A stretch of 37,048 nt of DNA from Patescibacteria group bacterium (GCA_041660885.1 JBAZVM010000009.1:1-37048), one strand, 5' to 3'; shown: positions 4,600-35,204, numbered from the stretch's first letter. Notes: generated by a model not told the origin, from the sequence alone. A program made the numbers and translations.

Positions 4600-4653
4600 A
4601 AATAACCTTTATAGAAGGGCTATAGCCTTGAGCGACCGAAGGGAGTCGAAAGG

Positions 4654-4726
4654 TGGGGTGTACAGGAGTTGAACCTGTGACCTTCTCCTTAAAAGGGAGC
4701 TGCTCTACCAACTGAGCTAACACCCC
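4654..4726 (-). tRNA. tRNA-Lys (anticodon UUU)
   Basis: The reverse complement GGGGTGTTAGCTCAGTTGGTAGAGCAGCTCCCTTTTAAGGAGAAGGTCACAGGTTCAACTCCTGTACACCCCA folds by hand into a 73-nt cloverleaf. It has a perfect 7-bp acceptor stem, a GCTC/GAGC D stem, the anticodon loop CTTTTAA, an ACAGG/CCTGT T stem with a TTCAACT loop, and discriminator A. CCA is not encoded. Confidence 0.9.
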
Positions 4727-4780
4727 ATTCAAATATGGGGTTTTTTTAAATTAAAATGGCCTTGTAAAAAGACCTTTTTT

Positions 4781-4809
4781 ATTGTATATATTAAAGAACA
4801 AATTGTCAA
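4781..4809 (-). promoter_or_regulatory. sigma70-like promoter for tRNA-Lys
   Basis: The minus strand reads TTGACA (4809..4804), a 17-nt spacer, then TACAAT (4786..4781), about 50 nt upstream of the mature tRNA 5' end. Confidence 0.4.
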
Positions 4810-4824
4810 TAATCAGGCCAAGAT

Positions 4825-5958
4825 ATGAAAGTTTATTTCTATACGCTGGGTTGCCGCTTAAACCAAGCGGAAACCGACAGCTACCAAGAGGCTTTAGCCA
4901 AAAAAGGGTTCGCTATCACAATCGATAATAGTGATTTTGATATTGCCGTAGTTAATACCTGCGCGGTAACGCACAAAGCCGACCGTGAAGCCCGGCAAAG
5001 CATCCGTAAAATCAAGCGCCAATGCCCGAAAGCGAAAATTGTCATGACCGGCTGTTCCAGCGAGAAATTAGAAGAGGTTGATTATTATATTAAAGATAAA
5101 GAAAATTTTGTAAAAGAGTTCATAAAAATATTTCCGAAATCCGATCATCTTCATTCGCATCAAATAAAAGAAAAAGTTAAAGTGAGGGCTAACATTAAAA
5201 TTCAAACGGGTTGCGATAATCATTGCACCTATTGCTATACGCGTATTCCACGTGGACGGTCCCGCAGTTTTTCCCCAAATGATATCATTCGGCAAATAAA
5301 AAATAAAGAGAAACAAGGCGTTAAAGAAGTAATCTTGACAGGAGTAAATATCGGGCAATATTCCTCTCTTATTGGTTTAATTAAAAATATTTTAAAAGAA
5401 ACGAATATTCCAAGAATAAGATTATCTTCCATAAATCCGGAATATGTTTATGACAATAAAGAATTTAAGAACCTTTTCAAAAATCCGCGCGTATGCCAGC
5501 ACCTGCATCTTTCTTTGCAATCGGGCTCCGACGCCATATTAAAAAAAATGAATCGTCACTACACAAGCGCGCAATATTTAAAAATCGTGCGCGATTATTA
5601 TAAAGCTTACCCGTTATTCGGATTCACCACCGATGTTATCATAGGCTTTCCCGGTGAAACGGAAAAAGATTTCAAGCAAACCTGCGCTTTGGTAAAAAAG
5701 TGCGGCTTTTTAAAGATCCACATTTTTCGCTATTCCAAGCGCCAAGGCACCCCGGCCGCTAAAATGCCTCATCAAGTACCGGAAAATATAAAAAAGCAGC
5801 GTTTAAATATTTTGGAAAAAATAAATCAGGATTTGCAAAAAAAGTTCCGCAAGAAAATGAAGGGGAAGAAGCTGGATGTTTTGTTTGAGGGGAAAGTAGG
5901 GGATTATTTGGTCGGCCATGCGGGGAATTATTTATTTGTTAAGAAAAAATATTTATAG
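4825..5958 (+). CDS. mtaB: radical-SAM methylthiotransferase, MtaB-like (tRNA t6A37 methylthiotransferase family)
   Basis: The N-terminal MTTase domain reads YTLGCRLNQAETD...NTCAVT...TGC. The radical-SAM cluster motif is CDNHCTYC. The C-terminal TRAM-like tail is short. Confidence 0.8.
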   Translation: MKVYFYTLGCRLNQAETDSYQEALAKKGFAITIDNSDFDIAVVNTCAVTHKADREARQSIRKIKRQCPKAKIVMTGCSSEKLEEVDYYIKDKENFVKEFIKIFPKSDHLHSHQIKEKVKVRANIKIQTGCDNHCTYCYTRIPRGRSRSFSPNDIIRQIKNKEKQGVKEVILTGVNIGQYSSLIGLIKNILKETNIPRIRLSSINPEYVYDNKEFKNLFKNPRVCQHLHLSLQSGSDAILKKMNRHYTSAQYLKIVRDYYKAYPLFGFTTDVIIGFPGETEKDFKQTCALVKKCGFLKIHIFRYSKRQGTPAAKMPHQVPENIKKQRLNILEKINQDLQKKFRKKMKGKKLDVLFEGKVGDYLVGHAGNYLFVKKKYL

Positions 5959-9555: not shown

Positions 9556-9557
9556 TT

Positions 9558-9722
9558 ATGGATAAAAAACAGCAATTAAAAAAGGAAGAGTTGGAACAAA
9601 CTCTGGCGGAAAAAGCCGTGCAATCCATCGGCATATCCATAGCCGCGGTTATCGGCATTATTCTTCTGTTTATGCTTTTCTTGGGCATCTTCATGAAAGG
9701 CGTGGTAAGCGGTTGGTTTTAA
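9558..9722 (+). CDS. 54-aa single-pass micro-membrane protein (not in ORF track)
   Basis: The ATG lies 2 nt after the kinase stop. The translation is MDKKQQLKKEELEQTLAEKAVQSIGISIAAVIGIILLFMLFLGIFMKGVVSGWF, with a charged N-terminus followed by one hydrophobic helix. It ends 25 nt before the ATPase start. Confidence 0.5.
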   Translation: MDKKQQLKKEELEQTLAEKAVQSIGISIAAVIGIILLFMLFLGIFMKGVVSGWF

Positions 9723-9747
9723 AGTAAAAATATGTTAAAATAATCCC

Positions 9748-12465
9748 ATGCCGAAACATGAGGTTAATTTTTATAATCTATCATTTAACGAAGTAATTAG
9801 CCGTTTTAAAACGGGCGATAACGGCCTAACTCTGGAAGAAGCTAAAAATAGGCTGAAAGAGCACGGCTTTAACAAATTGCCGGAAGAGAAAGGCGCCTCC
9901 AGCATAAAACTTTTTTTCGCGCAGTTTAAAAGCGTTTTAATTTATATTTTGTTGATTGCCGCGGTAATCAACTTTTTTTTGGTTTGCGAAGAAAGCAAAA
10001 GTTTGAATCTTTCCATATCCGACCAAGCGGATACCTATATAATTCTAATCACGGTTCTAATTAATATTATTGTCGGTTTCATACAAGAAAATAAAGCGCA
10101 AAAGTCTTTGCAGGCTTTGAAGAAAATAATTTCTTTAAGCGCCCGCATAATTCGCGGCGGAAAAGAATTCGTGATCAATGCGCAAGAATTGGTGCCCGGA
10201 GATGTAATGCTTATATCCGCCGGGGATAAAATTCCGGCCGATGTTCGGCTGACCGAAGTGGAAGATTTGGAAGCAAACGAATCTGCGCTTACCGGCGAAA
10301 GCGAACCGGTAAAGAAAACAACTGTAAAACTGGAAGGGGAATTGCCCTTGGGAGATAGGCTGAACATGGTTTTTACCGGAACCACCATAACCAAAGGCCA
10401 GGGAAGGGGTATTGTTATTACCACCGGAGAAAAAACCGAAATCGGCCGCATTGCCAAGCTTATCAAAGAAACAAAGGACGAAAGCACGCCGCTTCAGCAA
10501 AAGCTTAATAAATTTTCCAAGAGCATGGGAATAGTTGTTTTGGCCGTGGCCGCGGTTTTAATGATTATCGGTTTTCTGCAGGGAGATCCTTTCATTGAAA
10601 TATTCACGGTATCCGTGGCCGTGGCGGTTTCCGCTTTGCCCGAAGGGTTGGCCATTGGCGTAACCGTTATTTTAGCTTTGGGTATGCAGCGCATTTTGAA
10701 GCAAAAAGCTTTGGTGCGCAAATTGGTAGCCGCGGAAACTTTAGGGTCCACCACTTTCATTTGCACGGATAAAACCGGCACTCTAACCGAAGGTAAAATG
10801 CAGGTAACGGATTTAATCACTTGGGATCATGATTTTAACGTGAAAAAAACCGAAGATAAAAAATTGCGCAGCAAGGAAAACGAAGAAATGCTTTTTGCTT
10901 TGCACATCGGCTTGATGTGCAATGACGCGCGCATAGACAATATCGATGACGATATAGATGATTGGATAATCTCCGGCAATCTTACCGAACGAGCGCTGTT
11001 GCTGGCCGCCACCCAAGCCGGATTGCAATACAAAAAAGAACACTCATTGTATCACCGGCTGGATAGCATTCCCTTTGATTCGGAAATTAAATATATGGCG
11101 ACCCTGCATAAAATGGATGCCAAGCGCAATATAGTTTACTTTAAAGGCGCGCCGGAAAAAGTATTTAATAAATGCACGCATCTGCGCGTAGGCAACAAAG
11201 AAGTAAAATTCGATGAAGAAAAAAGAGAAAAGTTTTTAAATAAATTCACAACTTTAAGCAATAAAGGATTGCGCGTAATTGCCTTAGCTTATCGCCATAT
11301 CCCTGTAAAAAATAAACGTTTGGCAGATGTAAATTTAAACACGCTGGTTTTTGTGGGCTATGTGGGCATTAAAGACCCGCTAAGACCTACTTCTAAAGAA
11401 ACAGTGGAGGAATGCCATCAAGCGGGTATTAAAGTGGTAATGATCACCGGAGACCATAAATTAACAGCTTCGGCCATTGCCAAAGATTTGGGCTTGCCTT
11501 GCGCCGCAGAAAATATTTTAGAAGGGCAAGAGCTTGATAAAATGAGCGACGATATATTAAAGCAGCGTGTAGAAGAAGTATTTGTTTACGCGCGGGTAAG
11601 CCCGGAGCATAAACTGCGCATTGTGCAGGCTTTGCGCAAACGCGGAGAAGTGGTGGCTATGACCGGAGATGGCATTAATGATTCGCCGGCGCTTAAAGCC
11701 TCTGATATCGGTGTGGCCTTGGGTTCTGGCACGCAAGTAGCCAAAGAAACAGCGGATATGGTGATACTGGATGATAATTTCCGAAGCATTGTGGGCGCGG
11801 TGGAAGAAGGCCGAGGGATATTCGACAACATTAAAAAAACCGTGCTGTATTTAATATCCGATTGCTTTTCCGAAGTTGTTTTATTAACTGGGAGCATATT
11901 GATGGGTATGCCCCTACCTTTGGTAGCAGGCCAGATTTTATGGATAAATTTGGTAAATGATACTCTGCCTAACTTGGCATTAACTAAAGAGCCGAAAGAA
12001 CAGGAAATAATGTTTGAACCGCCCAGGGGCCGCAAAGCGGAAATATTAACCAAAGATATTAAAATACTTGTGGTTTTTGTCAGTTTGTTTTCCGGGTTAT
12101 GCGGATTGGGTTTATTTTATTTCTTTAATCAGTATTACGACAATGTCGTGTTAGCCAGATCAGTAACATTTGCCATGCTTGGATTGGATTCCCTTATTTG
12201 TGTTTTCAGCATGCGTTCTTTAAGAAAAAGCATTTTTCAAGGCAATTTGTTCAGCAACTTATACCTGATTGGGGCCGTAATTATCAGCTTTGCGTTCTTG
12301 GCTGCCGCATTTTATGTTCCTTTGTTGCAGCAAATATTAAAAACCGAGCCTCTACAATGGAGTCATTGGCTATTGGTGCTGGCCCTTTGTTTGGTGGAGA
12401 TGGGGTTGATAGAAGCATTGAAATTTATCTTTATGAGGGGTAGAATAAAGTTAATAAGCAAATAA
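9748..12465 (+). CDS. P2-type cation-transporting ATPase (Ca2+/Mg2+-ATPase-like)
   Basis: Motifs seen are TGES, DKTGTLT (the phospho-Asp site), PEGL in TM4, MITGDH, TGDGINDSPAL and NLVNDTLP in TM6. The N-terminal cation-ATPase domain reads LTLEEAKNRLKEHGFNKL. Confidence 0.93.
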   Translation: MPKHEVNFYNLSFNEVISRFKTGDNGLTLEEAKNRLKEHGFNKLPEEKGASSIKLFFAQFKSVLIYILLIAAVINFFLVCEESKSLNLSISDQADTYIILITVLINIIVGFIQENKAQKSLQALKKIISLSARIIRGGKEFVINAQELVPGDVMLISAGDKIPADVRLTEVEDLEANESALTGESEPVKKTTVKLEGELPLGDRLNMVFTGTTITKGQGRGIVITTGEKTEIGRIAKLIKETKDESTPLQQKLNKFSKSMGIVVLAVAAVLMIIGFLQGDPFIEIFTVSVAVAVSALPEGLAIGVTVILALGMQRILKQKALVRKLVAAETLGSTTFICTDKTGTLTEGKMQVTDLITWDHDFNVKKTEDKKLRSKENEEMLFALHIGLMCNDARIDNIDDDIDDWIISGNLTERALLLAATQAGLQYKKEHSLYHRLDSIPFDSEIKYMATLHKMDAKRNIVYFKGAPEKVFNKCTHLRVGNKEVKFDEEKREKFLNKFTTLSNKGLRVIALAYRHIPVKNKRLADVNLNTLVFVGYVGIKDPLRPTSKETVEECHQAGIKVVMITGDHKLTASAIAKDLGLPCAAENILEGQELDKMSDDILKQRVEEVFVYARVSPEHKLRIVQALRKRGEVVAMTGDGINDSPALKASDIGVALGSGTQVAKETADMVILDDNFRSIVGAVEEGRGIFDNIKKTVLYLISDCFSEVVLLTGSILMGMPLPLVAGQILWINLVNDTLPNLALTKEPKEQEIMFEPPRGRKAEILTKDIKILVVFVSLFSGLCGLGLFYFFNQYYDNVVLARSVTFAMLGLDSLICVFSMRSLRKSIFQGNLFSNLYLIGAVIISFAFLAAAFYVPLLQQILKTEPLQWSHWLLVLALCLVEMGLIEALKFIFMRGRIKLISK

Positions 12466-13002: not shown

Positions 13003-13617
13003 ATGCATTTTAAAACAAAATTAGCCTTAGGATCAATTCTAGCCGTGGCTTTGGTAGCGGGGATATTAACTTTGCGCCAAAAATTTTATCCTTCTGCCAC
13101 TTCTATTTTAGATATTAACGCCACGAAAACCGCGGAAGAAGATTTCGATAAAAAAATGCTTACTATGTTAAAAAGAATGGATGTAGCTCTTGATACTAAT
13201 ACCAATGCTAACGGGAATGCAAACAGCAATGCCAATACTAATATTAACACCAGCCAAATCGTTGATAAAAAAGAAGTGCTGGCGGAAAAATTTTATTTGG
13301 TTTTATATCCTCAAGTACAGATAGACGCCGATTTAAATATAAACACGGAAAAGAAAATATCCACTGCTTCATTATCAACCAAGGACGAAAAAGATAAAGT
13401 GCTAGAATTCTATAAAGAGCAATTAACCGACCAAGCCAAAGAAATTGAAAGCGTAAACGAGCAATCAGACGACAAACTGGAAACATCTTTGATACTGTTT
13501 TCCGGCGAAGGCGGCGAAGGGGAGCTTAATGTAAAAATTTGGCGCTCCGGCGAGCAAACCAATATAGATTTATCCATCTCCGATAACTTTAAGGACCCGC
13601 GCTCTTCAGCTCTTTAA
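13003..13617 (+). CDS. membrane-anchored hypothetical protein with an Asn-rich linker
   Basis: It has an N-terminal signal-anchor (LALGSILAVALVAGILTL) and the linker TNTNANGNANSNANTNINT. It starts 1 nt after the DJ-1 stop. Its 3' end overlaps the mfd 3' end by 29 nt in convergent orientation. Confidence 0.65.
   Translation: MHFKTKLALGSILAVALVAGILTLRQKFYPSATSILDINATKTAEEDFDKKMLTMLKRMDVALDTNTNANGNANSNANTNINTSQIVDKKEVLAEKFYLVLYPQVQIDADLNINTEKKISTASLSTKDEKDKVLEFYKEQLTDQAKEIESVNEQSDDKLETSLILFSGEGGEGELNVKIWRSGEQTNIDLSISDNFKDPRSSAL
13195..13251 (+). repeat. Asn-rich low-complexity coding tract (TNTNANGNANSNANTNINT)
   Basis: Read directly from the translation as AAT/AAC-rich imperfect codon repeats. 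Confidence 0.7.
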
Positions 13618-16764: not shown

Positions 16765-16790
16765 AAAAGGCGAGACACGCCTTTTTTTGT
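16765..16790 (+). terminator. intrinsic terminator or leader attenuator hairpin
   Basis: AAAAGGCG-AGACA-CGCCTTTTTTT forms a short GC stem extended by A-U pairs, followed by a run of 7 T. It ends 12 nt before ATG 16802. Confidence 0.5.
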
Positions 16791-16801
16791 TTTTATTTTT
16801 T

Positions 16802-17431
16802 ATGCTAATTTTTGTTGATGAATCCGGAGATACCGGCCGAAAACTAAATAAGGGTTCTAGCAGATACTTTATTATTGCTATTGTAATTTTTTCAGAATCG
16901 GAAGAAGCTTTAAATTGCGACAAGCGTATTAATCAGCTAAGACGAGAAATCGGAAAGCCGGATAATTTTGAATTTCATTTTACTCATAATTCGGAGACAG
17001 TCAGACAAAAATTTTTGCAAGCAATTCAGCCTTATCACTTTAATTATTTCAGCGTGGTCATTGATAAACATCCGAATAAATTATGGGGACCGGGTTTTAA
17101 AGACAAAGAGTCCTTTTATAAATATGCTTGCAATATGGTTTTTACCAATGCTTTATTTTATTTAGACGATGCTACCGCGGTTTTAGATAAGTCTGGTTCT
17201 CCTGATTTTCGAAATAGGTTGGCGAAATATTTACGTAAGCGTATAAATGAGCAAGGCACGGGAAAGATAAAGAAGCTGAAACAGCAGAGATCATCCGCGA
17301 ATAATTTATTACAGCTGGCGGATTATGTATCAGGAATTATCAATAGAAAAGTGCAAAATAAAAGAGGCTGGATGCAATATTACAAATATATATCGGATAA
17401 AGAGAATTGGGTGCAAATTTGGCCCAAATAA
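16802..17431 (+). CDS. DUF3800 family protein
   Basis: MLIFVDESGDTG at the N-terminus (the D-E-S-G motif) and NLLQLADYVSG near the C-terminus are the two signature blocks of DUF3800. The track start at 16787 lies inside the preceding T-run, so ATG 16802 is preferred. Confidence 0.8.
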   Translation: MLIFVDESGDTGRKLNKGSSRYFIIAIVIFSESEEALNCDKRINQLRREIGKPDNFEFHFTHNSETVRQKFLQAIQPYHFNYFSVVIDKHPNKLWGPGFKDKESFYKYACNMVFTNALFYLDDATAVLDKSGSPDFRNRLAKYLRKRINEQGTGKIKKLKQQRSSANNLLQLADYVSGIINRKVQNKRGWMQYYKYISDKENWVQIWPK

Positions 17432-22993: not shown

Positions 22994-23022
22994 TTGACAG
23001 ACATTTTGATAAATGGTATATT
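22994..23022 (+). promoter_or_regulatory. sigma70 promoter with extended -10 upstream of rpsU
   Basis: TTGACA (22994-22999), 17 nt, then TGgTATATT (hexamer at 23017-23022). Confidence 0.5.
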
Positions 23023-23085: not shown

Positions 23086-23349
23086 GTGGTAGAAGTAGCA
23101 AAAAAAACAGGAGAATCAAACGAAAGCGTTGTTAGAAGATTTGTCCGCAAGATTCAAGCTAGCGGAAAATTGTTGCAAGCAAAAAAGAATCAATATCGTC
23201 AACCAAAACAGAACAAACGACGCGTAAGAGAATCCGCCATTCGCCGGGCGAAAGCCAGCGCGGAACGCGAATACTTGCGTAAAATCGGTAAATTGGAAGA
23301 ATCGGTATTTTCCGCTAGAGGCTCAAAAATTAAAGTGAAAAAGAAATAA
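23086..23349 (+). CDS. rpsU: 30S ribosomal protein S21 (with C-terminal extension)
   Basis: A GTG start follows the AAGGAGGTG Shine-Dalgarno sequence. The basic S21-like sequence reads ESNESVVRRFVRKIQASGKLLQAKKNQYRQPKQNKRR. Confidence 0.88.
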   Translation: MVEVAKKTGESNESVVRRFVRKIQASGKLLQAKKNQYRQPKQNKRRVRESAIRRAKASAEREYLRKIGKLEESVFSARGSKIKVKKK

Positions 23350-23367: not shown

Positions 23368-23805
23368 ATGAGTCTTTACAATCAAATCAATGACGATTTA
23401 AAAAAGGCGATGAAAGCGCAAGACGCTTTTTTATTGGGCACTTTGCGCATGGTTTATTCTTCCATGAAGTATAAAGCCATTGATAAAAAAGCCGACCTGA
23501 CTGACGACGACTGCCAGAAAATATTGGCTTCCGAAGCTAAAAAGAGAAAAGACTCTATCGCCGCTTTTGAAAAAGGCAACCGGCCGGAATTGGCGGAAAA
23601 AGAAAAAAAAGAATTGGAAATAATTAAAAAATATTTGCCAAAACAGCTTTCCGAAGAAGAATTAAGAGCCATTATCGTTAAAGTGGTGGCTGCCAACGCG
23701 GGTTTGGGCTTTGGCCCGATGATGGGCAAAGTAATGGCTCAGGCCAAAGGCAAAGCTGATGGCGCTTTGGTACAAAAAATATTAAAAGAAGAAACGGATA
23801 AATGA
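23368..23805 (+). CDS. yqeY: GatB/YqeY domain protein
   Basis: Family-typical segments are INDDLKKAMKA.D...L.TLRM, EAKKRKDSIAAFEKGNRPELAEKEKKELEIIKKYLPKQLSEEEL and MGKVMAQAKGKADG. Confidence 0.85.
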   Translation: MSLYNQINDDLKKAMKAQDAFLLGTLRMVYSSMKYKAIDKKADLTDDDCQKILASEAKKRKDSIAAFEKGNRPELAEKEKKELEIIKKYLPKQLSEEELRAIIVKVVAANAGLGFGPMMGKVMAQAKGKADGALVQKILKEETDK

Positions 23806-26800
23806 AAAACAAAAAAAATCTCGTCAAAAAAATGCTTTTCGGCTTAGGCTTGATCAGTAGTCTTTTTTTCGTTGTTAACAGCGTTTTTGCTCAAGTAAAA
23901 ACTGATTACGGTATTAACTTGGGTGATGCTTCCCCTGAAGAATTAGCCGTGAGCATTATTAATTGGGGATTAGGCATTCTGGCGCTTATCGCCGTCATCA
24001 TTATACTGTATGGCGGTTTTGTTTGGATGCTTTCCGGCGGTAATGAAGAAAAAGTGGAAAAAGCTAAAAAAATATTAAGAAACGGCATTATCGGCTTAGT
24101 AATTATTCTCGCGGCATGGGGCATTGCTACTTATATAATCAACAGGCTTTTAGACGCCACCAATGCCAATAACGGCACAAGCGGTGGCCCCAGCTACACT
24201 GATAATATACATGGTAAGGGCAATCCTTTTTACGTGGATCATTCTAATCCCGCGGACGAGGAGATTAATGTTACTTTATGTCATTTAATTGCCGTTACTT
24301 TTTCTTTGCCTGTTGATAAAACAACTATTAATGATGCGAATTTTAAAGTTACAGTGGCAAACGGCTCTAATCCGGATGGGGATTCTTGCGTTTCATCCTC
24401 CGATTGCGCGTCTGGCTTGTGCGAAATGGGCGATAGTATAGGTACATGTATAGGCGACCAAGTAAAAGGCACGTTCGCGTTTACCGAAGATCCGCCATAC
24501 GCGGCTGTTTGGTACCCAACTGCAGATTATATTGCTTCCACTACTTATCACGTGGAACTTTCTACGGAAATAGTAGGCCTTGATGAAATCACCACAGATA
24601 CTTATAAACTGGAAATGGGAGATACCAAGCGCGTGTTTGAATTCACCACGGGCACGGAATCCGACACCACGCCGCCGAAAATAGATGTGGTTTCCGTTAA
24701 ACCTTTCCCAGAGGATAACGCCACGGAAGTTTGCCGCAACACTCCCATACAAGTCAGCTTTTCCGAAAGTTTGGATCCCGCTTCCGTGAAAGATGAAAAT
24801 ATCTGGCTTTATAAATATACCGAAGGCGTTACTCCGAACGACCCGGGGAATGAATTATCCAGCGTGCGCTTTACCAGCATTGGCGGGCAAGCGGACGATA
24901 CTTTGATTACCAGCCCGCAAAGCGTGTTGGATTCGTACGCTGATTACGGTATAAGTTTATATAGCGGCGTTTACGACGCGGCCATAACTTCGGTGCGCGA
25001 AAATTATTTGGGTGCTGTTCGCGATACTTGCGGCAATCCTATTAGCGGAGATTACGACGACGATATGGAAGGCAGCCCCGCGGACGATTTCATGGAAGCG
25101 ACTAGCGCCGTGACCGCGCAAAATTCCGCTTATTCTTATCAGTGGACTTTCAAAACCGGCGAACAAACCGATTGTTCTCCGCAAATCGATTCGCTTACAT
25201 ACACTCAGCCCGATTACTATAGCGAAGACCTTTCTCCCTTTAATAACGAAAAACCCGATATAGATGGAGACGGCAAACCAGATGTAATGGCTGGCAGCGA
25301 AGATACCGACCAAGTTACTATTACGGGAAAATATCTCTATCCATTTTACGATGTAGGATTTGATTATAATATCTCTGGCGCTAATTTAAATTGTTTTGAC
25401 AGCGGTCACAATGTAAATTCGTCGTGCTTTATAACCAACAGCGGCAGCAGCGCCATTACTTTGCGCACTCCGGTCGCCGTGCGTAGCGGCGGAACTGTTT
25501 CCGTGGAAAATGAGTTTGGCACAGATAGTTCCGCTGATCAATTTTATGTTTCTTCGCCTTATATCAGCAGCTTGTCGCCGCAACAGGGGGCAGTAGGCCA
25601 ATTTGTAACCATAAAAGGCGCGCATTTCATTAATGATAAAAAAGGCAAAGTGTATTTTGACGGCCAGGAAGTGGAAACCCCTTGCGCCGATGGCTGGGAT
25701 GATGATCAAATCGTAGTGAAGATTCCGGATAGTTTTGGCGATTCGTTTTCCATAGGAGCTTTACTATCTGTTCAGGTGGTTACTGTGGGCCCAGATGGTG
25801 TTTGGAATAGTGGAGCGTATGGTACCGACGATAAATACAGCAATAAAAGAGGATTTACTTTAAAAGACGGCAGTCCCGGCCCGGGATTATGCTCCGTGGA
25901 TCCTTCTTGCTCCAATGACGGCACCGAAGACGTGGCCTTGAACGGTATTAATTTTGGCACGACCAGCGAATCCGTCTATTTTATTAACTCGTCCGATGTC
26001 GGGCAAACGGCTTCAATAAATTCATGGACGGATACGGACATTCTTACCGATCAATCTCCGGTTACCGCGCAAAATAATTACGATGCGTTTGTATCCATAA
26101 AAGATGCGGACGGAGAATCTATTTTTAGCAACGGTATGTCTTATGACATTCCTTGCGGTGAAGCACCTAGCGTGTTTACTTACGGCAGCTGCGATTTAAC
26201 CAGCGATGTTTATTATTTGCCGAATCCGCGGCCGAGTACGGAAGAAGCCTGCATTAACGGTGTAGTGTATTTTGCTTTTACCGCTGGCATGGATGACGCT
26301 TCCGTTAAAAATAATGTAAAAGTTTATAATTACGGCACCGGAGATTGGAACGCGAATTTGGCCACTGCTTCGGAAGTAGCTGGATCTATAGACAGCGAAG
26401 GAAAATTAAGTAAAATTTATTTAGGAGGCAGCGCTGATGAAGATTCTGATTATGAATTATTTTCTTTCACGCCACCGTCATCGCAACAGTTTGCTAGCGA
26501 CACTTGGTATAAGGTTACCATTCCCGTATCGGTTGTAAGTGATACCGGCATTGCCATAACCGAACCGTACGAATGGCATTTTAAAGTACGCAGTGGAACG
26601 GAAAATTGCAGCGTGGACGAAGTGGATGTACGCCCGTCTTTTACCAGGGCCACCACTTATGTTTCTACGGCCGCTTGTCCGGAAGAAAATTATACTTACG
26701 ATAGTAAGAATTATAACTACAAAGCCCAACCGTATAACGATGGTTGTTTCGCCTTAAGAAACGATTTTAGCTGGCATTGGGCTATAGATAATAATACCAA

Positions 26801-29800
26801 TACAAATATCATTAAATTTAAAGATAATAGCATTGATAAAATAACAGATAATGGATACAACAGTGTTTGCATGCAGGGCAACGGATCCACTAATTTCGGT
26901 ACCGCTTATGTCAATGCCAACCCGACAGCCGATGCGACGGTAGAGGACGAAGCGACTTTTGAAGTGGATTTCGGCTATTGCACTTCGGATGCCAATTGTG
27001 TAACCACCGAATGCCCGAATAGCACCTGCGATTTAACCACCTCTCATTGCACTCCGGAAGTAACATCTTTTTCTCCGTCTGAATCGGGAAAAGTCGGCCC
27101 GGGCGGTTGTGTTACGCTGTACGGATGCTATTTTGGTCCCACCAAAGGCACCTCGGGAAAAGTAGTATTTAACTCGGATAATGTTGATACTGAAGCGGAG
27201 TATTTAAACGAAGCTTTATGTAGTGATGCTACATGGTACGACGACCAAATAATCGCGGAATTACCCACTTCTTTAGCTCAAAATGAATATACCATTCTTT
27301 TAACTTCTTATAATAATTTACTAGCTCCCGCTGTTTCGGAATTTCTTACAAAAGCAGACAAGACACCTTGTTTGTGCCGCGCTGATCCCGACAACGGATC
27401 AGAAGGAACGGGCGTTACTTTGTATGGTAAATTTTTTGATCAATTAGTCGGAGCGCAGTATAGTGTTTTTTATAATAATGTTTATACCGCGGAAATTTCA
27501 CCAACTGCCTTAGATAACGCAACTTACGGTGATGACGCGTATAGCGTAAGCACATCCGTACCTACCGGTGCTATAAGTTCTGATACTGATGGGGTAAGAC
27601 TAGAAGATGAAAGCAATGGCGTGAGCAACTCTTTGGGCTTTGAAGTAACTTGCGATATCAATAGCGATTGCGCCACGAGTTGCTGCCATGATGGCCTTTG
27701 CCAAGCGGAATCGGTTTGCAATGCTTGCGTTGATAATAAAGATTGTTCTTATGGCAGCTGCCAAAGCGCTTGCACCAATGGCATGTGCGTACCCTATATT
27801 TCTTCCATATCCCCGGGATACGGCAATGTGGGCCAGCCCGTTACCATACACGGATGCCATTTTGGTTCGTATTATGATAAGAGCAATACCCTTTATTCCA
27901 AAGTGCTTTTTGACGAGACCATTGAAGCTCCGCTGGCTTGCGAAGGCTCTGATTCTTGGAACAACGAAGAAATTAAAGTTTACGCTCCGGAAGGAATATT
28001 CGCCACCGAAACTGAAGATACAGCCACCGTCAGCGTGCAACAAGTCTATCGCCCGTCTACTACAGCGGCGTTAGCATCGCAACAAAGTTTATCAGGGCAG
28101 TCTTATTGTCTGGATAGTACTTGTACAGATGCCGGTAAAGATACTTGCGAAGCAGATGAGCTAGACGGCGGATGCGCCAGCGCTTGGCAATCCACCACCT
28201 TTGGCAAAAGCGATGCCTGCGTCGGAGTGGATATTCCGGTTATTTGCGATTTAAACGCGGCCAACGGAAAAGTGGGAGACACGGTAAATATCGAAGGATA
28301 TAATTATTACGCTTCTGATTCTGTTTCTTTTTGCCAATGCGAAGGAGAAAAAGACGAAACTTGCCGCATAGATGTTGGTTCTCCTTCATGCGATATTAAT
28401 TATACTTACACATGCTACGCGGATCCCGATGATACTAATACTGCTTGCAGTACGACTCTTTCCACGAACAATGGAAGCAATTATTGGGTAGAGAAAGACG
28501 ATGAGGGTACGGTAATTAATAAATGTCTATGCGTAAATCCTGATGATGCTAATGAAACTTGCTATATAAATGATGGCGCTAAATCTTGTACTTATCCTTA
28601 CAATGATAAGTGTTTTGTAGATTCGGGAAATGAGACGATTGAATGTGACGCAGACTCGTCTACTTATAAAACGCTGAATGGCAATGTGGAATACTCCATA
28701 AATCAGCAAGCTGATTGGTTGTATCATCCAGATACCGGATACATTCATAGTCCTTACTTGGATTATTTGAAAACAACAGTGCCCGATGGCACGGAAACCG
28801 GCAATGTCTATGTGCAAGCCGTGAAAGCGGACCTTACGGTTTGCGAAAGCAACGGCGCGAACTACGATATTACTTGTGCTGAGTGCAGCGAATGTTCCAC
28901 TAACAAGATGTGTGATCTTTCTTATAGCGATGACGGTGATTACGGAGTATGTACTTCTAATATTGTTGGTTTTTGCGCGGACTATCCGGATTCTTGCTGC
29001 GGAAATACAGGATGTAAAGAAAGCTATGAAGAATGCTCATTAGACGAAACCTGTGATGTTGATGCCGGTTGTGCTTGTACAGCAACCAGCGGCGCGACAT
29101 GCACCGTAGCCAAAGACGAAATTAGTTGCAGCACAACCGAATCTGATGGTGGCTCTTGTCTTGAAAGACCGCTTTATGACGCGGCAACATCGGCGCCGGA
29201 TAACGGAACCGACGATGTTTGCCCCAACGCGGAGATCACGCTGGGTTTTGATATGCCCATGACTATTAGTGATGATACAAAAGCATATTCCGATTATATA
29301 AAATTAGTAACGAAAGAAGATTATAATGCCGCCTCTGGAAATTTTAGCGCTCTCGCCGAAGAAAAATGTACTTTATCGCTAGCGTGCGCTGATGAAGCCG
29401 GCTGTGAGTGTACCGCGGCAAGCACAAAGAAATGCACCGTGAATAAAGACGAAACTACTTGCCAAGCCACCAATATTAATAAATTAGACTCGGTTGAAGA
29501 CTCTGACTTCGGAACGCTTTTGTTAAAGCAATCAAGTCTTTTGGAAACTGCTGAACATGATTATTATATTGTTGTATACAGTAATAAAGTTAGTAATACG
29601 GGCATTGTCGACGAAGAAAACGGCATGGCTTTGGGTTGTTCCAGCGAGCAGGAAAGCGCCGGGCTTTGCACTTCAACAAGCGATACTTTGGTTATTACAT
29701 TTACGACTCAGCCCGGCACTGATGCTTGCGGACCGTCTTATGTAACCTTATCCGCCTCGGAAGAATTTACCGAGAGAAATTACTACTTTATCGCGGCGGA

Positions 29801-31277
29801 AGAAAAACAAGCATTTAGAGCTACGGTTTATAACGACAACGGTACGTCTTCGGATACAACAGACGACCAGGCCATTATTGGCATAGCGGATGTTTTGGAC
29901 TGGGAATATACTTGGACACCGAAGTTTGATAGCTTGGAAGATTTAGACACAGCTGACTGCCCGGTGGTTGGCATTATTACGGATGGCTCCCCTGATTTTG
30001 TGGAAGATAAAAATTCCCAAAATTTAACCGCGGGAAACCAAGAAGGAGACGGAGCAATTGGCGTGACCATAACCGGAGATGGATCTACCGCGCATGGCTG
30101 GAGCGGATCAGCGACAGCCGCGCAACCCGTTCATGTTTTATACTGCGAAAGTGATGATTATCTTTACAGCTACGCCGATAGCGCGGGCCAGAATTTTTCT
30201 TTCGCCTATTGCCGCGGAAGCAGCGACGATGAAACTTTATTGCCCAAGTTTAACGCCCCGACAATAAAAAGCGGAACAGAAACCGGTGAAAATTATTACA
30301 GCATGTACTTATTTACCAATAATGACAACGAAGATCTATTCGGTATTAAAGTCTATTCCGATGATCTGGACGGAGATGCCACAAAAGTATTCGACGCGGT
30401 AAAGCCAAGCTTATGGACTTCGGTGAATTTAGACGATCCAAGCTCGTATTCTGATACCGCGCTTGATGGCTACGCGGCCGTAGAAAACACGCAAAGCACA
30501 ATAGCCGTGGCGCCTAATTTATCCGGCAGCGTGTTGTACATGAATGCTTATATGTTATCCGTAAATAAAGGCGCGGGCAGTGAAATGCAAGATGTATTCA
30601 GCAAAATAAAAGAATATTGGTATTTTAATACCAATAGCGAATTCGCTACGACAACGGGTAAATGCAATCTGGAAAAAGATAAATTAATACGCGATACCCA
30701 GCGCATCACGGATCTTGGCACTATGAATTATTTATTGGCCGGAAGCAGCTACCCCGCGTTAAGCGAAGGCACTTATATTCAATACTTCACGAATTCCAAA
30801 TGGCCATCGTGGGATTCGGCGTTGGGGAATGCCTTGGGCCAAAGCTTGCCCACAGACCCGGTAAACGAATTTGCCGACGCCGCCAAGAACTGCCCGAATG
30901 ATGGCACAAGCACTTTCTATGATGAAACCGGCACTTGCTGGGACGCGGTTAATAAAGATTATAAATGTCCGACAGACTCACATGTTTATCAATATATTTA
31001 CGACAACGCTTCCAGCCAATATTCTTTATACGCCAATCTAGAATTTAGCGATGATGGAGCCGGTTGGTATTGGAACAATTATAAAGATACTGATGATCCT
31101 TGCTCGGGCAACTCCTTTTCTAGCGGCTGTGCCTGCTTTAATTATAAATTAAGCACTCCGAGTACGGATTTTTATCACGGTACTTGCGATACCGCAAACA
31201 GCACTTGTAATACGGATAGCGGCTTTAAAATAGGCGCTTATTGCAGCAGCGACAGCGACTGCACAATAGCGCCATAA
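23802..31277 (+). CDS. giant (2,491 aa) cysteine-rich surface protein with an N-terminal CPR-pilin (VirB2/TrbC-like) double-TM module, Big_5-like and IPT/TIG-like Ig domains, and a pilin-like C-terminal domain
   Basis: Its ATG overlaps the yqeY stop (ATGA). The signal peptide ends ...SVFA-QV. The pilin-like module reads SIINWGLGILALIAVIIILYGGFVWMLSGGNEEKVEKAKKILRNGIIGLVIILAAWGIATYII. A Big_5-like motif is DTTPPKIDVVSVKPFPEDNATEV...FSESLDPASV. At least 6 IPT/TIG-like starts are visible, for example PYISSLSPQQGAVGQFVTIKGAHF and PYISSISPGYGNVGQPVTIHGCHF. Many Cys knots are present. Confidence 0.9.
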   Translation: MKNKKNLVKKMLFGLGLISSLFFVVNSVFAQVKTDYGINLGDASPEELAVSIINWGLGILALIAVIIILYGGFVWMLSGGNEEKVEKAKKILRNGIIGLVIILAAWGIATYIINRLLDATNANNGTSGGPSYTDNIHGKGNPFYVDHSNPADEEINVTLCHLIAVTFSLPVDKTTINDANFKVTVANGSNPDGDSCVSSSDCASGLCEMGDSIGTCIGDQVKGTFAFTEDPPYAAVWYPTADYIASTTYHVELSTEIVGLDEITTDTYKLEMGDTKRVFEFTTGTESDTTPPKIDVVSVKPFPEDNATEVCRNTPIQVSFSESLDPASVKDENIWLYKYTEGVTPNDPGNELSSVRFTSIGGQADDTLITSPQSVLDSYADYGISLYSGVYDAAITSVRENYLGAVRDTCGNPISGDYDDDMEGSPADDFMEATSAVTAQNSAYSYQWTFKTGEQTDCSPQIDSLTYTQPDYYSEDLSPFNNEKPDIDGDGKPDVMAGSEDTDQVTITGKYLYPFYDVGFDYNISGANLNCFDSGHNVNSSCFITNSGSSAITLRTPVAVRSGGTVSVENEFGTDSSADQFYVSSPYISSLSPQQGAVGQFVTIKGAHFINDKKGKVYFDGQEVETPCADGWDDDQIVVKIPDSFGDSFSIGALLSVQVVTVGPDGVWNSGAYGTDDKYSNKRGFTLKDGSPGPGLCSVDPSCSNDGTEDVALNGINFGTTSESVYFINSSDVGQTASINSWTDTDILTDQSPVTAQNNYDAFVSIKDADGESIFSNGMSYDIPCGEAPSVFTYGSCDLTSDVYYLPNPRPSTEEACINGVVYFAFTAGMDDASVKNNVKVYNYGTGDWNANLATASEVAGSIDSEGKLSKIYLGGSADEDSDYELFSFTPPSSQQFASDTWYKVTIPVSVVSDTGIAITEPYEWHFKVRSGTENCSVDEVDVRPSFTRATTYVSTAACPEENYTYDSKNYNYKAQPYNDGCFALRNDFSWHWAIDNNTNTNIIKFKDNSIDKITDNGYNSVCMQGNGSTNFGTAYVNANPTADATVEDEATFEVDFGYCTSDANCVTTECPNSTCDLTTSHCTPEVTSFSPSESGKVGPGGCVTLYGCYFGPTKGTSGKVVFNSDNVDTEAEYLNEALCSDATWYDDQIIAELPTSLAQNEYTILLTSYNNLLAPAVSEFLTKADKTPCLCRADPDNGSEGTGVTLYGKFFDQLVGAQYSVFYNNVYTAEISPTALDNATYGDDAYSVSTSVPTGAISSDTDGVRLEDESNGVSNSLGFEVTCDINSDCATSCCHDGLCQAESVCNACVDNKDCSYGSCQSACTNGMCVPYISSISPGYGNVGQPVTIHGCHFGSYYDKSNTLYSKVLFDETIEAPLACEGSDSWNNEEIKVYAPEGIFATETEDTATVSVQQVYRPSTTAALASQQSLSGQSYCLDSTCTDAGKDTCEADELDGGCASAWQSTTFGKSDACVGVDIPVICDLNAANGKVGDTVNIEGYNYYASDSVSFCQCEGEKDETCRIDVGSPSCDINYTYTCYADPDDTNTACSTTLSTNNGSNYWVEKDDEGTVINKCLCVNPDDANETCYINDGAKSCTYPYNDKCFVDSGNETIECDADSSTYKTLNGNVEYSINQQADWLYHPDTGYIHSPYLDYLKTTVPDGTETGNVYVQAVKADLTVCESNGANYDITCAECSECSTNKMCDLSYSDDGDYGVCTSNIVGFCADYPDSCCGNTGCKESYEECSLDETCDVDAGCACTATSGATCTVAKDEISCSTTESDGGSCLERPLYDAATSAPDNGTDDVCPNAEITLGFDMPMTISDDTKAYSDYIKLVTKEDYNAASGNFSALAEEKCTLSLACADEAGCECTAASTKKCTVNKDETTCQATNINKLDSVEDSDFGTLLLKQSSLLETAEHDYYIVVYSNKVSNTGIVDEENGMALGCSSEQESAGLCTSTSDTLVITFTTQPGTDACGPSYVTLSASEEFTERNYYFIAAEEKQAFRATVYNDNGTSSDTTDDQAIIGIADVLDWEYTWTPKFDSLEDLDTADCPVVGIITDGSPDFVEDKNSQNLTAGNQEGDGAIGVTITGDGSTAHGWSGSATAAQPVHVLYCESDDYLYSYADSAGQNFSFAYCRGSSDDETLLPKFNAPTIKSGTETGENYYSMYLFTNNDNEDLFGIKVYSDDLDGDATKVFDAVKPSLWTSVNLDDPSSYSDTALDGYAAVENTQSTIAVAPNLSGSVLYMNAYMLSVNKGAGSEMQDVFSKIKEYWYFNTNSEFATTTGKCNLEKDKLIRDTQRITDLGTMNYLLAGSSYPALSEGTYIQYFTNSKWPSWDSALGNALGQSLPTDPVNEFADAAKNCPNDGTSTFYDETGTCWDAVNKDYKCPTDSHVYQYIYDNASSQYSLYANLEFSDDGAGWYWNNYKDTDDPCSGNSFSSGCACFNYKLSTPSTDFYHGTCDTANSTCNTDSGFKIGAYCSSDSDCTIAP

Positions 31278-31285
31278 ATTATGCT

Positions 31286-31957
31286 ATGGCAGACCCGCAA
31301 ATATCTAACCCACAAACCAAAAATGAGCCGTTAGAAGATATATTTTCTGACGTTGCTTCTAATCCGCGCGCATCAAGCCCTTTGCCATCCCAGCCCGCGT
31401 ATATTCAACCGGCGCCTGTGGTACCGGCTCCGATTATAGCCTCTGCCCCGAGAAAAAAAAGATTTTCTATCGTTAATATATTATTAATAGTATTGGGCAC
31501 TATGGCCATTGGCTTGCTGGCCGTGGCCGGATATTATTATTGGCAAAATCGCTCAAAAACAGTATCTCCCACCAATACAAATACGGCAGTGCTGGAAGAC
31601 CAGGGTGATATTGTGCCAACGAACACTAATATTGCTCCTATAAATATCAATGCCAATAAAAATACGAACGCGGAAGAGGAGCCGATAAAAAAATACGTAG
31701 ATTCGGATTTCGACGGTTTGTCCGATGATGCGGAAGCCACATACGAAACGGACCCGAATAAAAAGGACACTGATGATGACGGCTTATCCGATAGAGAGGA
31801 AGTTAAAGTATATTTAACCGATCCCAACCGGCCCGATACGGATAACGACGGATTTAAAGATGGCGCCGAAGTGGATGGAGGATATAATCCGAAAGGATCG
31901 GGATATCTGATAGATTGGCAGGATGAAATAAATAAAAAATTAAATATAAACCAATAA
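31286..31957 (+). CDS. single-pass membrane protein with Asn/Thr-rich linker and thrombospondin type-3 (Ca-binding) repeats
   Basis: ATG 31286 (MADPQISNPQ...) is preferred over the track TTG 31241, which lies inside the giant gene. It has a Pro-rich N-terminus and the TM segment FSIVNILLIVLGTMAIGLLAVAGYYYW. The TSP3-like repeats are DSDFDGLSDDAE..DPNKKDTDDDGLSDREE..DPNRPDTDNDGFKDGAEV (nt 31700-31891). Confidence 0.75.
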   Translation: MADPQISNPQTKNEPLEDIFSDVASNPRASSPLPSQPAYIQPAPVVPAPIIASAPRKKRFSIVNILLIVLGTMAIGLLAVAGYYYWQNRSKTVSPTNTNTAVLEDQGDIVPTNTNIAPININANKNTNAEEEPIKKYVDSDFDGLSDDAEATYETDPNKKDTDDDGLSDREEVKVYLTDPNRPDTDNDGFKDGAEVDGGYNPKGSGYLIDWQDEINKKLNINQ

Positions 31958-31962
31958 GATTT

Positions 31963-33105
31963 ATGGTAGATTTTTCCACTAATTTCAACGCACCTAATAT
32001 TCCTTCCGAAGTGCACACCATGCCGGATAAATTCGCTTCTGCCGGAGGGAACGCACCGCCGCCAACAGGATTGCAAACTCCGCCGAAGAAAGGCAGTAAA
32101 GCCAGCTGGATTATAATTGCCGTTATTATTGTAGCCGTTATCGCTATTGTGGGTGGCGGCATTTATTTAATCACAAGCAACTTGCCGTCCAAACAAACTC
32201 AAGAGGCGATAAATGAAGGAAAAACAAACGCTACTAATTCAATCGTTGCCAATGCCAACGGAAATTTGAATGCGAATAAAAATGGGAATTTGAACGGAAA
32301 CAGCAATGCTAATAAAAATAGCAATAAAAACGGCAATAGCAATGATAATGAAAATTCCAACAGCAATGCCAATCGCAATGAAAATACCAATACCAGTTCA
32401 ACGAATACTTCGATAAAAATAGCCCCAGATTCGGATAATGATGGCTTAACTGCGGCTGAGGAAAAATTATACGGCACAAAAGTAGATAAACCCGATACGG
32501 ATGAAGACGGGTTTAAAGACGGCGTGGAAGTAATCAACGGGTACGACCCGACCGCAGATGGGAATATACAGGATGGTTCTTATGGGGGATTATATACGAA
32601 CGAAGATTTTAATTATCGCATCTTGTATCCCAAGGGTTGGAACGTGGAACCGATCGCGGAAGATAATAAAAATGTAATATTCACTCCGCAAGAAGAGGAG
32701 AACGCGGGAGAGTTCATTGAAATGATCACGGAAACAAATCCATACGGTTTTAGCGCCATGGATTGGTATCTAGACCAAAATAAAGATGCTTCGGAAAATT
32801 TAATAGATGAAATCACGGTTAACGGAGAAGACGGCGTGATGAGCGTAGACGGCTATACCGTATATTTTACGGATGAAAACTATGTATATGCCATTCATTA
32901 TAATTTTGGCAGCAAGAAAGAAGTTAATTTCTCTTCTACTTTTCGCATGATGTATCAAAGTATAAAACTGCACGTGAAAAAAACAACATCAGACCAAACT
33001 AATTCCAACAGCAATACCAGTATTATTAGTAATACTAATACAAATAAAAACAGCAACAGCAATTTGAACAGCAACAAAAACAGCAACAGCAACACGAATG
33101 ATTAA
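31963..33105 (+). CDS. single-pass membrane protein with long Asn-rich linker, TSP3 repeats, globular C-terminal domain and Asn-rich tail
   Basis: The TM segment is WIIIAVIIVAVIAIVGGGIYLI. The linker is ANANGNLNANKNGNLNGNSNANKNSNKNGNSNDNENSNSNANRNENTNT. The TSP3 repeats are DSDNDGLTAAEE..DKPDTDEDGFKDGVEV (nt 32428-32550). The globular part begins LYTNEDFNYRILYPKGWNVEP.... Confidence 0.8.
   Translation: MVDFSTNFNAPNIPSEVHTMPDKFASAGGNAPPPTGLQTPPKKGSKASWIIIAVIIVAVIAIVGGGIYLITSNLPSKQTQEAINEGKTNATNSIVANANGNLNANKNGNLNGNSNANKNSNKNGNSNDNENSNSNANRNENTNTSSTNTSIKIAPDSDNDGLTAAEEKLYGTKVDKPDTDEDGFKDGVEVINGYDPTADGNIQDGSYGGLYTNEDFNYRILYPKGWNVEPIAEDNKNVIFTPQEEENAGEFIEMITETNPYGFSAMDWYLDQNKDASENLIDEITVNGEDGVMSVDGYTVYFTDENYVYAIHYNFGSKKEVNFSSTFRMMYQSIKLHVKKTTSDQTNSNSNTSIISNTNTNKNSNSNLNSNKNSNSNTND
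32248..32412 (+). repeat. Asn-rich low-complexity coding tract
   Basis: Imperfect (N-x)n codon repeats covering aa 96-150 of the 380-aa protein. Confidence 0.75.
32998..33102 (+). repeat. Asn/Ser-rich C-terminal low-complexity tract
   Basis: TNSNSNTSIISNTNTNKNSNSNLNSNKNSNSNTND at the protein C-terminus. Its last codons overlap the ybeY start. Confidence 0.7.
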
Positions 33106-35133: not shown

Positions 35134-35170
35134 TTATAAAGAGACTTAATATATCAAAATAAACCCCCGG

Positions 35171-35204
35171 TTTAAAACCGGGGGTTTATTTTATGTTTAT
35201 TTAT
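35171..35204 (+). terminator. intrinsic terminator after ftsA
   Basis: AAACCCCCGG (35171-35180) pairs with CCGGGGGTTT (35188-35197) around a 7-nt loop, followed by a T-rich tail. Confidence 0.7.

Follow-up and report, generated by a model that had tools for sequence, protein, structure and literature searches.

The giant gene and its layout

The 37,048-nucleotide stretch analyzed here (GCA_041660885.1, JBAZVM010000009.1:1-37048; hereafter the window) comes from a Patescibacteria group bacterium, has the gene content of an ordinary patescibacterial chromosome, and encodes a giant protein of 2,491 amino acids (aa), in which a signal peptide and a helical hairpin resembling the pilins of type IV secretion systems (T4SS) precede a very large ectodomain. 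The features of this gene, all on the plus strand, are:

23802..31277, plus strand: giant gene, 2,491 aa, with signal peptide, T4SS-pilin-like hairpin and ~2,370-aa ectodomain
23802..23891, plus strand: signal peptide, aa 1-30, by hydropathy, with the conserved cleavage motif A-x-A before Q (VFA before QV)
23931..24152, plus strand: T4SS_pilin/VirB2-like helical hairpin, aa 44-117, comprising the first transmembrane helix (TM1), the basic loop GGNEEKVEKAKK and the second helix (TM2)
24153..25172, plus strand: membrane-proximal Big_5 (bacterial Ig-like) region, aa 118-457, 64.5 bits in two stretches on the segment
25551..26117, plus strand: TIG-like units 1 and 2, aa 584-672 and 694-772, matched by Pfam TIG, with jackhmmer independent E-values (i-E) of 7.7e-39 and 1.1e-16
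27051..27608, plus strand: TIG-like units 3 and 4, aa 1084-1163 and 1188-1269, jackhmmer i-E 2.7e-18 and 6.4e-13
27651..27788, plus strand: dense Cys cluster, aa 1284-1329, CDINSDCATSCCHDGLC...CTNGMC, read from the translation
27792..28364, plus strand: TIG-like units 5 and 6, aa 1331-1419 and 1479-1521 (the latter partial), Pfam TIG 31 bits, i-E 1.5e-25 and 5.3e-09
28107..29471, plus strand: Cys-rich middle region, aa ~1436-1890, overlapping TIG-like unit 6
29994..31166, plus strand: conserved distal domain, aa ~2065-2455 (~390 aa), found in 81 other proteins and belonging to no known family

An earlier note, made from the sequence of this window, had described the gene as a pilin module fused to ~2,370 further residues and had asked whether the frame might prove to be interrupted. 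The frame at 23802..31277 is open over all 2,491 codons with zero internal stops, its ATG being part of an ATGA shared with the stop codon of yqeY, which lies upstream. As no DNA tandem repeats were found within the ORF and its GC content is even along the gene (0.44-0.46, versus 0.41 for the whole window), there is no suggestion of a collapsed repeat or a chimera. The fusion of the pilin module to the giant ectodomain is genuine and, judging from the homologs described below, it is old and common among them. The only hydrophobic segments detected by hydropathy are all N-terminal, viz., aa 7-30, ~48-78 (TM1) and ~91-117 (TM2), leaving 2,374 residues C-terminal to TM2. The protein is strongly acidic (371 D+E versus 124 K+R) and contains 102 Cys residues (4.1%).

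The composition of the ectodomain likewise bears out what the earlier note had read from the translation, namely Big_5-like domains, at least six TIG/IPT-like domains, closely spaced Cys clusters (the one that it quoted is that at aa 1284-1329) and a distinct C-terminal domain. In the full-length protein the Pfam Big_5 profile scores 58.5 bits over four stretches, the best of which spans aa 288-396, and the TIG profile scores 61.5 bits; the TIG-like units were defined by an iterated local profile, which recovers six significant copies. A C-x-C-x(6-9)-C-x-[IV]-x(5-6)-C module, recognized by a regular expression on the translation, recurs four times in the Cys-rich middle region, at aa 1511, 1575, 1757 and 1868, the copies extending to aa 1887. 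The protein ends in ...CSSDSDCTIAP, and neither an LPXTG motif nor a C-terminal hydrophobic segment nor a Pfam match to RTX/HemolysinCabind was found anywhere in it.

The N-terminal module and its family

The N-terminal ~117 aa were predicted by the earlier note to comprise a signal peptide, TM1, a loop and TM2 of the pilin family, with profile searches proposed as the check, and these place the segment in that family above the curated cut-offs. Pfam T4SS_pilin (PF18895) matches aa 44-112 with 50.7 bits when the full sequence is searched and with 56.1 bits for the isolated aa 1-133 (cut-off 26.6), the match covering profile positions 4-71 of 71. The TrbC/VirB2 profile (PF04956) recognizes the isolated module (29.0 bits, cut-off 27.9) and drops to 21.7 bits in the full protein; the NCBIfam model NF045849 ('Mbov_0395 family pilin-like conjugal transfer protein') behaves similarly, with 40.3 bits on the isolated module against an equivalog cut-off of 40, and 34.3 bits on the full-length protein. 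An exhaustive phmmer search with aa 1-125 recovers 29,461 representative clusters at E <= 1e-3, and the module is 45-67% identical to stand-alone pilins of 108-170 aa. Based on these profile and pairwise matches, the segment is assigned to the T4SS_pilin/VirB2-TrbC family. A tblastn search of the module against PLSDB plasmids returned no match, implying that it is not close to plasmid VirB2 at the BLAST level.

The module has the signal peptide, two hydrophobic helices and short basic loop expected of such pilins. An AlphaFold2 (AF2) model built from 41 aligned modules places the signal-peptide helix at 4-23 and the hairpin helices at 45-76 and 82-119, with pLDDT up to 96, and the alignment shows the cleavage-site residue A30 to be at least 90% conserved. 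The loop between TM1 and TM2, GGNEEKVEKAKKILRN, is basic, and the positive-inside rule accordingly puts both termini outside; with the loop inside, the ectodomain is predicted to be extracellular. The protein departs from the small pilins in size: these comprise ~100-130 aa and end after the second helix, the stand-alone ones among its relatives stopping 0-3 residues past the module, whereas the giant protein reaches 2,491 aa. A Foldseek search of the hairpin model against the PDB is not discriminating, its best E-value being 0.68; the hits of this two-helix search are generic hairpins, ATP synthase subunit c among them, and the top 50 do not include a T4SS pilin. As the method cannot separate this hairpin from others, the family membership rests on the sequence profiles rather than on the fold.

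Giant homologs, small pilins and concatemers

A total of 100 homologs of the giant protein were recovered, ranging in length from 1,558 to 3,913 aa. The combination of PF18895 and Big_5, usually accompanied by TIG, is present in 95 of them, and the distant ones additionally display DUF4215, VWA, Big_7, fn3 or Laminin_G-type domains. One homolog (P0036) is named a Mbov_0395-type pilin-like conjugal transfer protein at NCBI. The earlier note had held that a pilin scaffold bearing so large an ectodomain is not a described arrangement. This stands as far as the literature goes, in that no paper describing the architecture was found; the arrangement is nevertheless common in the databases, as seen from the 95 homologs above and from the relatives of the module itself.

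We examined the 150 best relatives of the module, a query-biased list that is not to be taken as a census of the family. These fall into the following groups:

42 of 150: proteins of at least 1,500 aa, in which the module is always N-terminal
21 of 150: proteins of 200-1,499 aa
34 of 150: proteins of less than 200 aa
53 of 150: single polypeptides with 2-11 concatenated hairpins

The concatemers, such as P0103 (820 aa), P0137 (1,147 aa), P0105 and others, carry the hairpin copies in tandem within one polypeptide, and the three whose sequences were read have a single N-terminal signal peptide each. On this evidence, we identify them as polytopic membrane proteins built of T4SS_pilin modules, and not as runs of pilin genes. 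A search for a single clade of giant-associated modules gave a mixed nearest-neighbor picture, with a giant being nearest to 24 of the 43 giants, and we make no claim of a single origin. In one related locus (L004; GCA_004297205.1, class ABY1), the giant gene is immediately preceded by a gene coding for 613 aa (8158-9999), which contains a second pilin module; the two modules (nucleotides 8275-8574 and 10100-10399) are 78% identical, which shows that module-anchored genes can be tandemly duplicated.

Uneven sequence constraint along the protein

We used mean identity to eight orthologs, computed per region, as a measure of constraint. The giant protein as a whole averages 42.5%, the signal peptide 24% and the hairpin (aa 44-117) 77%, with TM1, TM2 and the cytoplasmic loop at 81%, 80% and 70%, respectively. 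The signal peptide can serve as an internal control, being a segment that needs only hydrophobicity, and its 24% identity against the 77% of the hairpin suggests that the latter is under sequence-specific selection. This conservation is the strongest hint of a role for the hairpin beyond mere retention in the membrane. Since the hairpin and loop are far more constrained than the rest of the protein, they probably make sequence-specific contacts within the membrane, be it through self-association, with small pilins, or by docking to a membrane machine. In the same comparison, Cys positions are 81% conserved as opposed to 41% for other residues, which fits their forming structural disulfides.

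The distal domain

The distal domain at aa ~2065-2455 is terminal in the close orthologs and is followed by 600-1,500 further residues in the distant ones. Searches against Pfam, NCBIfam and PDB sequences, with both the single sequence and a profile, yielded no match. An AF2 model from 31 sequences (pLDDT 79.9, pTM 0.82) shows a first half with a PsbP/lipoprotein-like alpha-beta sandwich and a second half with a helix followed by a small sheet. In Foldseek searches with this model, the best PDB match is PsbP (2xb3, E 2.9e-3), with nothing at E <= 1e-3, and the viral library returns only three phage lipoproteins (E 2e-4 to 6e-4); the fold class is thus hinted at by these matches to a predicted structure, and none of them points to a function.

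Within the domain, aa ~2290-2420 (window 30660-31060) display the motif RD..R..DL...YP.L....LPTDP.N...Y.Y...Y.L.A.LE. We considered whether this segment might be a type IV pilin or pseudopilin head lacking its hydrophobic helix. The T2SSG profile (PF08334) touches 2/31 members of the distal family at E 0.026 and 1/26 at E 0.028, an hhalign comparison with four GspG sequences gives a probability of 17%, and no pilins are found among the top 50 Foldseek hits of the domain; given this weak support, we do not claim the relationship and note it as a lead only.

A fixed slot in a housekeeping neighborhood

The window encodes DnaB, a MiaB-like protein, a histidine kinase, a P-type ATPase, Mfd, Pth, Der, LytR, HisRS, HIT, S21 and YqeY; after the giant gene come two membrane proteins with TSP3 repeats, YbeY, diacylglycerol kinase (DAGK), FtsA and FtsZ. 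The elements flanking the giant gene are:

22994..23022, plus strand: best promoter-like site, just upstream of S21, 11/12 matches with an extended -10, from a consensus scan only
23086-23349, plus strand: S21 (rpsU-like), identified through a weak PF01165 hit on the orthologs in loci L003 and L004
23368-23805, plus strand: yqeY, Pfam YqeY 147 bits, its stop overlapping the giant ATG
31286..31957, plus strand: downstream gene 1, single-pass membrane protein with three TSP3 (Ca-binding) repeats, TSP3_bac 58.4 bits, TM at aa ~62-80; the ATG at 31286 is the likely true start
31963..33105, plus strand: downstream gene 2, single-pass protein with a TSP3 repeat and a C-terminal globular domain, TSP3_bac 28.7 bits, TM at aa ~49-67
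35156..35192, plus strand: terminator-like hairpin with a 17-bp stem after ftsA, the strongest found, from a consensus scan only

Gene spacing is tight from S21 to DAGK, and the consensus scan detected no comparable terminator between the giant gene and ftsA. The promoter-like site before S21 is a candidate start for an operon that includes the giant gene, which is probably co-transcribed as part of rpsU-yqeY...ybeY-dgkA-ftsA. The TSP3 membrane proteins, which have Asn-rich low-complexity linkers (downstream gene 2 included), were tested as possible paralogs of parts of the giant protein and are not paralogous to it; they are probably its functional partners.

We compared the window with 22 related loci, comprising four homologs on long contigs and 18 loci from GTDB species representatives labeled Kerfeldbacteria or Patescibacteria. 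Wherever the contig extends, the slot is the same: HisRS-HIT-S21-YqeY-[giant]-two TSP3-YbeY-DAGK-FtsA-FtsZ. The upstream order is kept in the 19 of the 22 loci whose contig reaches upstream of the giant gene, and tblastn matches both TSP3 proteins directly downstream of it in 22/22. Among the positional homologs on long contigs are some with no more than 27-28% identity to the query, encoded by a Kerfeldbacteria genome and an ABY1 genome, and the same gene order persists even at 25-31% identity of the ectodomain. Across the loci, identity to the window is 65-81% for FtsZ, 37-67% for the pilin module and 25-46% for the distal domain. By these syntenic comparisons, the giant gene behaves as a core, single-copy-like gene in a fixed position across an entire class (ABY1, Kerfeldbacteria-like).

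The earlier note had suggested a search for VirB4, VirB6 and VirD4, which came back negative: none is encoded in the 37-kb window, and the genes called in the ±10 kb around four orthologs include none of a T4SS Pfam family. Neither a second pilin module nor type IV pilins (with a class III signal) were found in the window, and no type IV pilins of this kind were found in loci L001-L004.

Two observations concern the immediate surroundings of the giant gene in other genomes. The homologs P0010, P0011 and P0017 are annotated as fusions of YqeY to the giant protein (PF09424 + PF18895); these likely arise when gene prediction runs on across the ATGA junction or picks a start further upstream, making this conserved junction an annotation pitfall. 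In L004, a diversity-generating retroelement (2770-5325) lies ~5 kb upstream of the giant-gene cluster, with bAvd at 3992-4333, a reverse transcriptase at 4807-5325 and a 125-nt repeat pair resembling variable and template repeats (3392-3516 and 3832-3956, 82% identity). The giant gene was rejected as its target, the variable copy being situated in a separate 256-aa gene (2770-3540).

Relationship to known systems

The small Patescibacteria VirB2-like T4SS pilins detected by PF18895 share with the giant protein the signal peptide, the short exposed segment, the two helices and the basic loop. They stop 0-3 residues past TM2 where the giant protein runs on for ~2,370 residues, and they are often arrayed near virB4 (PMC12102498), in contrast to the housekeeping operon of the giant gene with no T4SS gene nearby. 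A survey of T4SS in Patescibacteria recognized such pilins by PF18895 and PF04956 with hidden Markov model coverage above 50% (PMC12102498), criteria that would count giants of the type described here as 'VirB2'; it treats only small VirB2-like pilins and their arrays, without mention of giants, and reports that adhesins such as PrgB were not detected. A 2025 T4SS review likewise covers small pilins only (PMC12857230), and a structure-universe preprint has PF18895 as the dominant domain of freshwater-specific clusters. We found no description of the pilin-plus-giant-ectodomain architecture in a literature search that left most subscription-journal papers outside its reach.

Other systems resemble the giant protein in single aspects. 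The Mbov_0395/MMCAP2_0565 family of mycoplasma integrative and conjugative elements (ICE; NF045849) has the two-helix hairpin in common with it, as well as an occurrence in a monoderm or wall-less lineage; NF045849, however, models a small ICE protein of 80 positions, and the giant protein has no ICE or conjugation context. The 'extended' VirB6 proteins (PMC12857230) are comparable in that a T4SS-family membrane module bears a large hydrophilic extension, but VirB6 is a separate, polytopic family encoded within T4SS loci. The 'Pam' pilus of the Candidate Phyla Radiation (10.64898/2026.03.03.709456) was considered and set aside as an unrelated Ig-fold donor-strand-exchange system.

In terms of concept, a pilin moiety extended C-terminally by a bulky binding module is also seen in the modular type IV pilins, with the giant protein carrying ~20 domains where these have a single grafted one. 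Examples, PilB and PilC of Streptococcus sanguinis, are type IV pilins with grafted functional modules for which polymerization has been demonstrated; they belong to another superfamily, with a class III signal peptide, a single N-terminal helix and the type IV pilus machinery. Giant Ig-repeat adhesins are represented elsewhere by the LapA/SiiE/Bap type, exported by type I secretion systems (T1SS), and by the LPXTG-anchored MSCRAMMs. The giant protein has the same general form, an acidic rod of tandem Ig-like domains with a distinct distal domain, but differs from these adhesins in its N-terminal pilin-type hairpin anchor, in lacking an RTX/T1SS signal or LPXTG motif, and in being unusually Cys-rich.

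A hairpin-anchored surface protein as the favored interpretation

On balance, and with only a modest lean in its favor, we interpret the giant protein as a core, vertically inherited, Sec-exported and hairpin-anchored surface fiber or adhesin of an ABY1-class (Kerfeldbacteria-like) patescibacterium. Before their assembly, VirB2/TraA pilins lie in the membrane as a hairpin with both termini outside. By analogy, the giant protein would be exported by Sec and cleaved by signal peptidase after VFA, and its hairpin would reside in the cytoplasmic membrane with the basic loop on the cytoplasmic side and the two ends on the exterior. TM2 would then act as the anchor from which a disulfide-stabilized stalk, made up of the Big_5 and TIG Ig-like domains and the small Cys modules, projects through the wall, presenting the ~390-aa distal domain to another surface, most plausibly that of a host cell or the polymers of its envelope. 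The two Ca-binding, single-pass TSP3 proteins would be partners of the giant protein. A role in contact or adhesion is favored because the stalk diverges faster and the lineage-variable domains resemble those of organism-facing proteins. Patescibacteria are obligate or suspected episymbionts, and attachment to the host by the giant protein is plausible. The interpretation offered by the earlier note is hence supported in part: the family placement and the fusion hold, host attachment is plausible, and polymerization of the pilin moiety was an assumption.

Several points weigh against this reading. The neighborhood of ybeY, dgkA, ftsA and ftsZ could point to a function in the envelope or in division rather than in host contact. 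The hairpin and loop are conserved exactly as they would be in a polymerizing or machine-docked pilin, and in view of the conservation of the hairpin, the part of a passive anchor may be too modest for it. The structural search for the hairpin could not tell it from any helical hairpin, and Foldseek against the PDB and viral models gave no adhesin or lectin fold match for the distal domain.

The first of these points underlies an alternative, which we regard as unlikely though deserving of attention, wherein the giant protein is an S-layer-like or wall-spanning scaffold that, together with the TSP3 proteins, serves cell architecture or septation and not attachment. Its gene is invariably beside, and probably co-transcribed with, ybeY, dgkA and ftsA, with ftsZ following, it has the character of a core gene present in single copy within the lineage, and the two Ca-binding TSP3 membrane proteins are always alongside. 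The acidic, Ig-domain-rich composition is that of many S-layer and wall proteins, and Big_5 itself was originally defined on the S-layer protein SbsA. Gene order in reduced genomes is, however, often a matter of ancestry and not of function, and the low identity of the distal domain relative to that of FtsZ (25-46% versus 65-81%) is more typical of organism-facing proteins. The domain content moreover varies by lineage (VWA, DUF4215, Big_7, Laminin_G-type, fn3), as is the case in adhesin families.

The conservation of the hairpin raises a different alternative, in which a T4SS encoded elsewhere in the genome extracts it from the membrane and the giant protein joins small VirB2-like pilins in a common polymer, either sparsely or at its tip or base; we consider this quite improbable. 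In F-type pili both pilin termini face the exterior of the filament, and a C-terminal extension is therefore topologically possible. The module is a true member of the family, 45-67% identical to small pilins, with the hairpin and loop as its most conserved parts, which fits a packing interface or recognition by a machine. Many Patescibacteria encode VirB2-like pilins, often in arrays (PMC12102498), and GCA_004297205.1, the source of the positional ortholog P0057, appears in a published table as an ABY1 member that has VirB4 (PMC12102498, Table S1). Of the four Kerfeldbacteria assemblies seen in that same table, on the other hand, two are recorded as lacking VirB4, a weak point given that they are incomplete metagenome-assembled genomes. 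The T4SS genes absent from the window and, by Pfam, from ±10 kb of four orthologs, and the housekeeping-operon position fixed in 22/22 loci, speak against such a coupling. A 2,370-aa extension on every subunit would presumably be sterically incompatible with the tight VirB2 helix, restricting the protein to a minor role at most, and the presence of the hairpin in polytopic concatemers of 2-11 copies indicates that the family is used outside filaments. To our knowledge, no VirB2-type pilus has been observed in these organisms. We are doubtful that the giant protein is a genuine pilus subunit, its hairpin handled by a patescibacterial T4SS and co-assembled with small pilins. If it were, a conjugative-type pilus of a monoderm episymbiont would carry a covalently attached, disulfide-rich adhesin of ~2,370 aa, a pilin and adhesin in one polypeptide, unlike anything in the T4SS pili described, which would make it a direct candidate molecule for capturing hosts.

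An artifact, whereby a chimeric assembly, a repeat collapsed in assembly or a frameshift fused a small pilin gene with a large one unrelated to it, has a negligible chance of being correct, having in its favor no specific support beyond the general caution due to a metagenomic contig and the YqeY-fused annotations, which show that gene calls near the start codon can err, and being effectively refuted by the joint presence of the N-terminal module and giant body in 95/100 homologs from independent assemblies and sources, by the continuous alignment of P0002, P0013 and P0030 from residue 1 to the C-terminus, and by the intact, repeat-free and evenly composed frame.

Under the favored reading as a hairpin-anchored surface protein, the VirB2-type hairpin has found a widespread and conserved use, apparently undescribed so far, in anchoring a giant surface protein encoded by a core gene. 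At present, patescibacterial 'VirB2-like pilins' are counted solely from profile hits, and many PF18895 hits are not small pilins: among the 150 closest relatives of the module, the giants and the polytopic concatemers account for 42 and 53, respectively, which cautions against inferring pili from counts of PF18895. The constrained anchor points to a specific membrane partner, the giant protein constitutes a defined and conserved candidate for surface-contact biology, and its ~390-aa distal domain offers a new target for structural and binding work.

Further observations in the window and related loci

Elsewhere in the window, the product of a gene at 13003-13617 is predicted to be a membrane or secreted protein; it comprises 204 aa, has no Pfam match and carries a low-complexity linker rich in Asn (NTNANGNANSNANTNINT), similar to those of the TSP3 proteins. 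Between Mfd and Pth, a gene at 16787-17431 encodes a DUF3800 protein (60.5 bits), preceded by a 166-aa ORF without a known family. Among the related loci, the metagenome-assembled genomes at L008, L010, L011, L013, L014, L018, L020 and L022 bear the titles 'uncultured Gammaproteobacteria bacterium' or 'Bdellovibrionales bacterium', which are probably erroneous, given the Kerfeldbacteria-type cluster with conserved synteny and an FtsZ 65-81% identical to that of the window.

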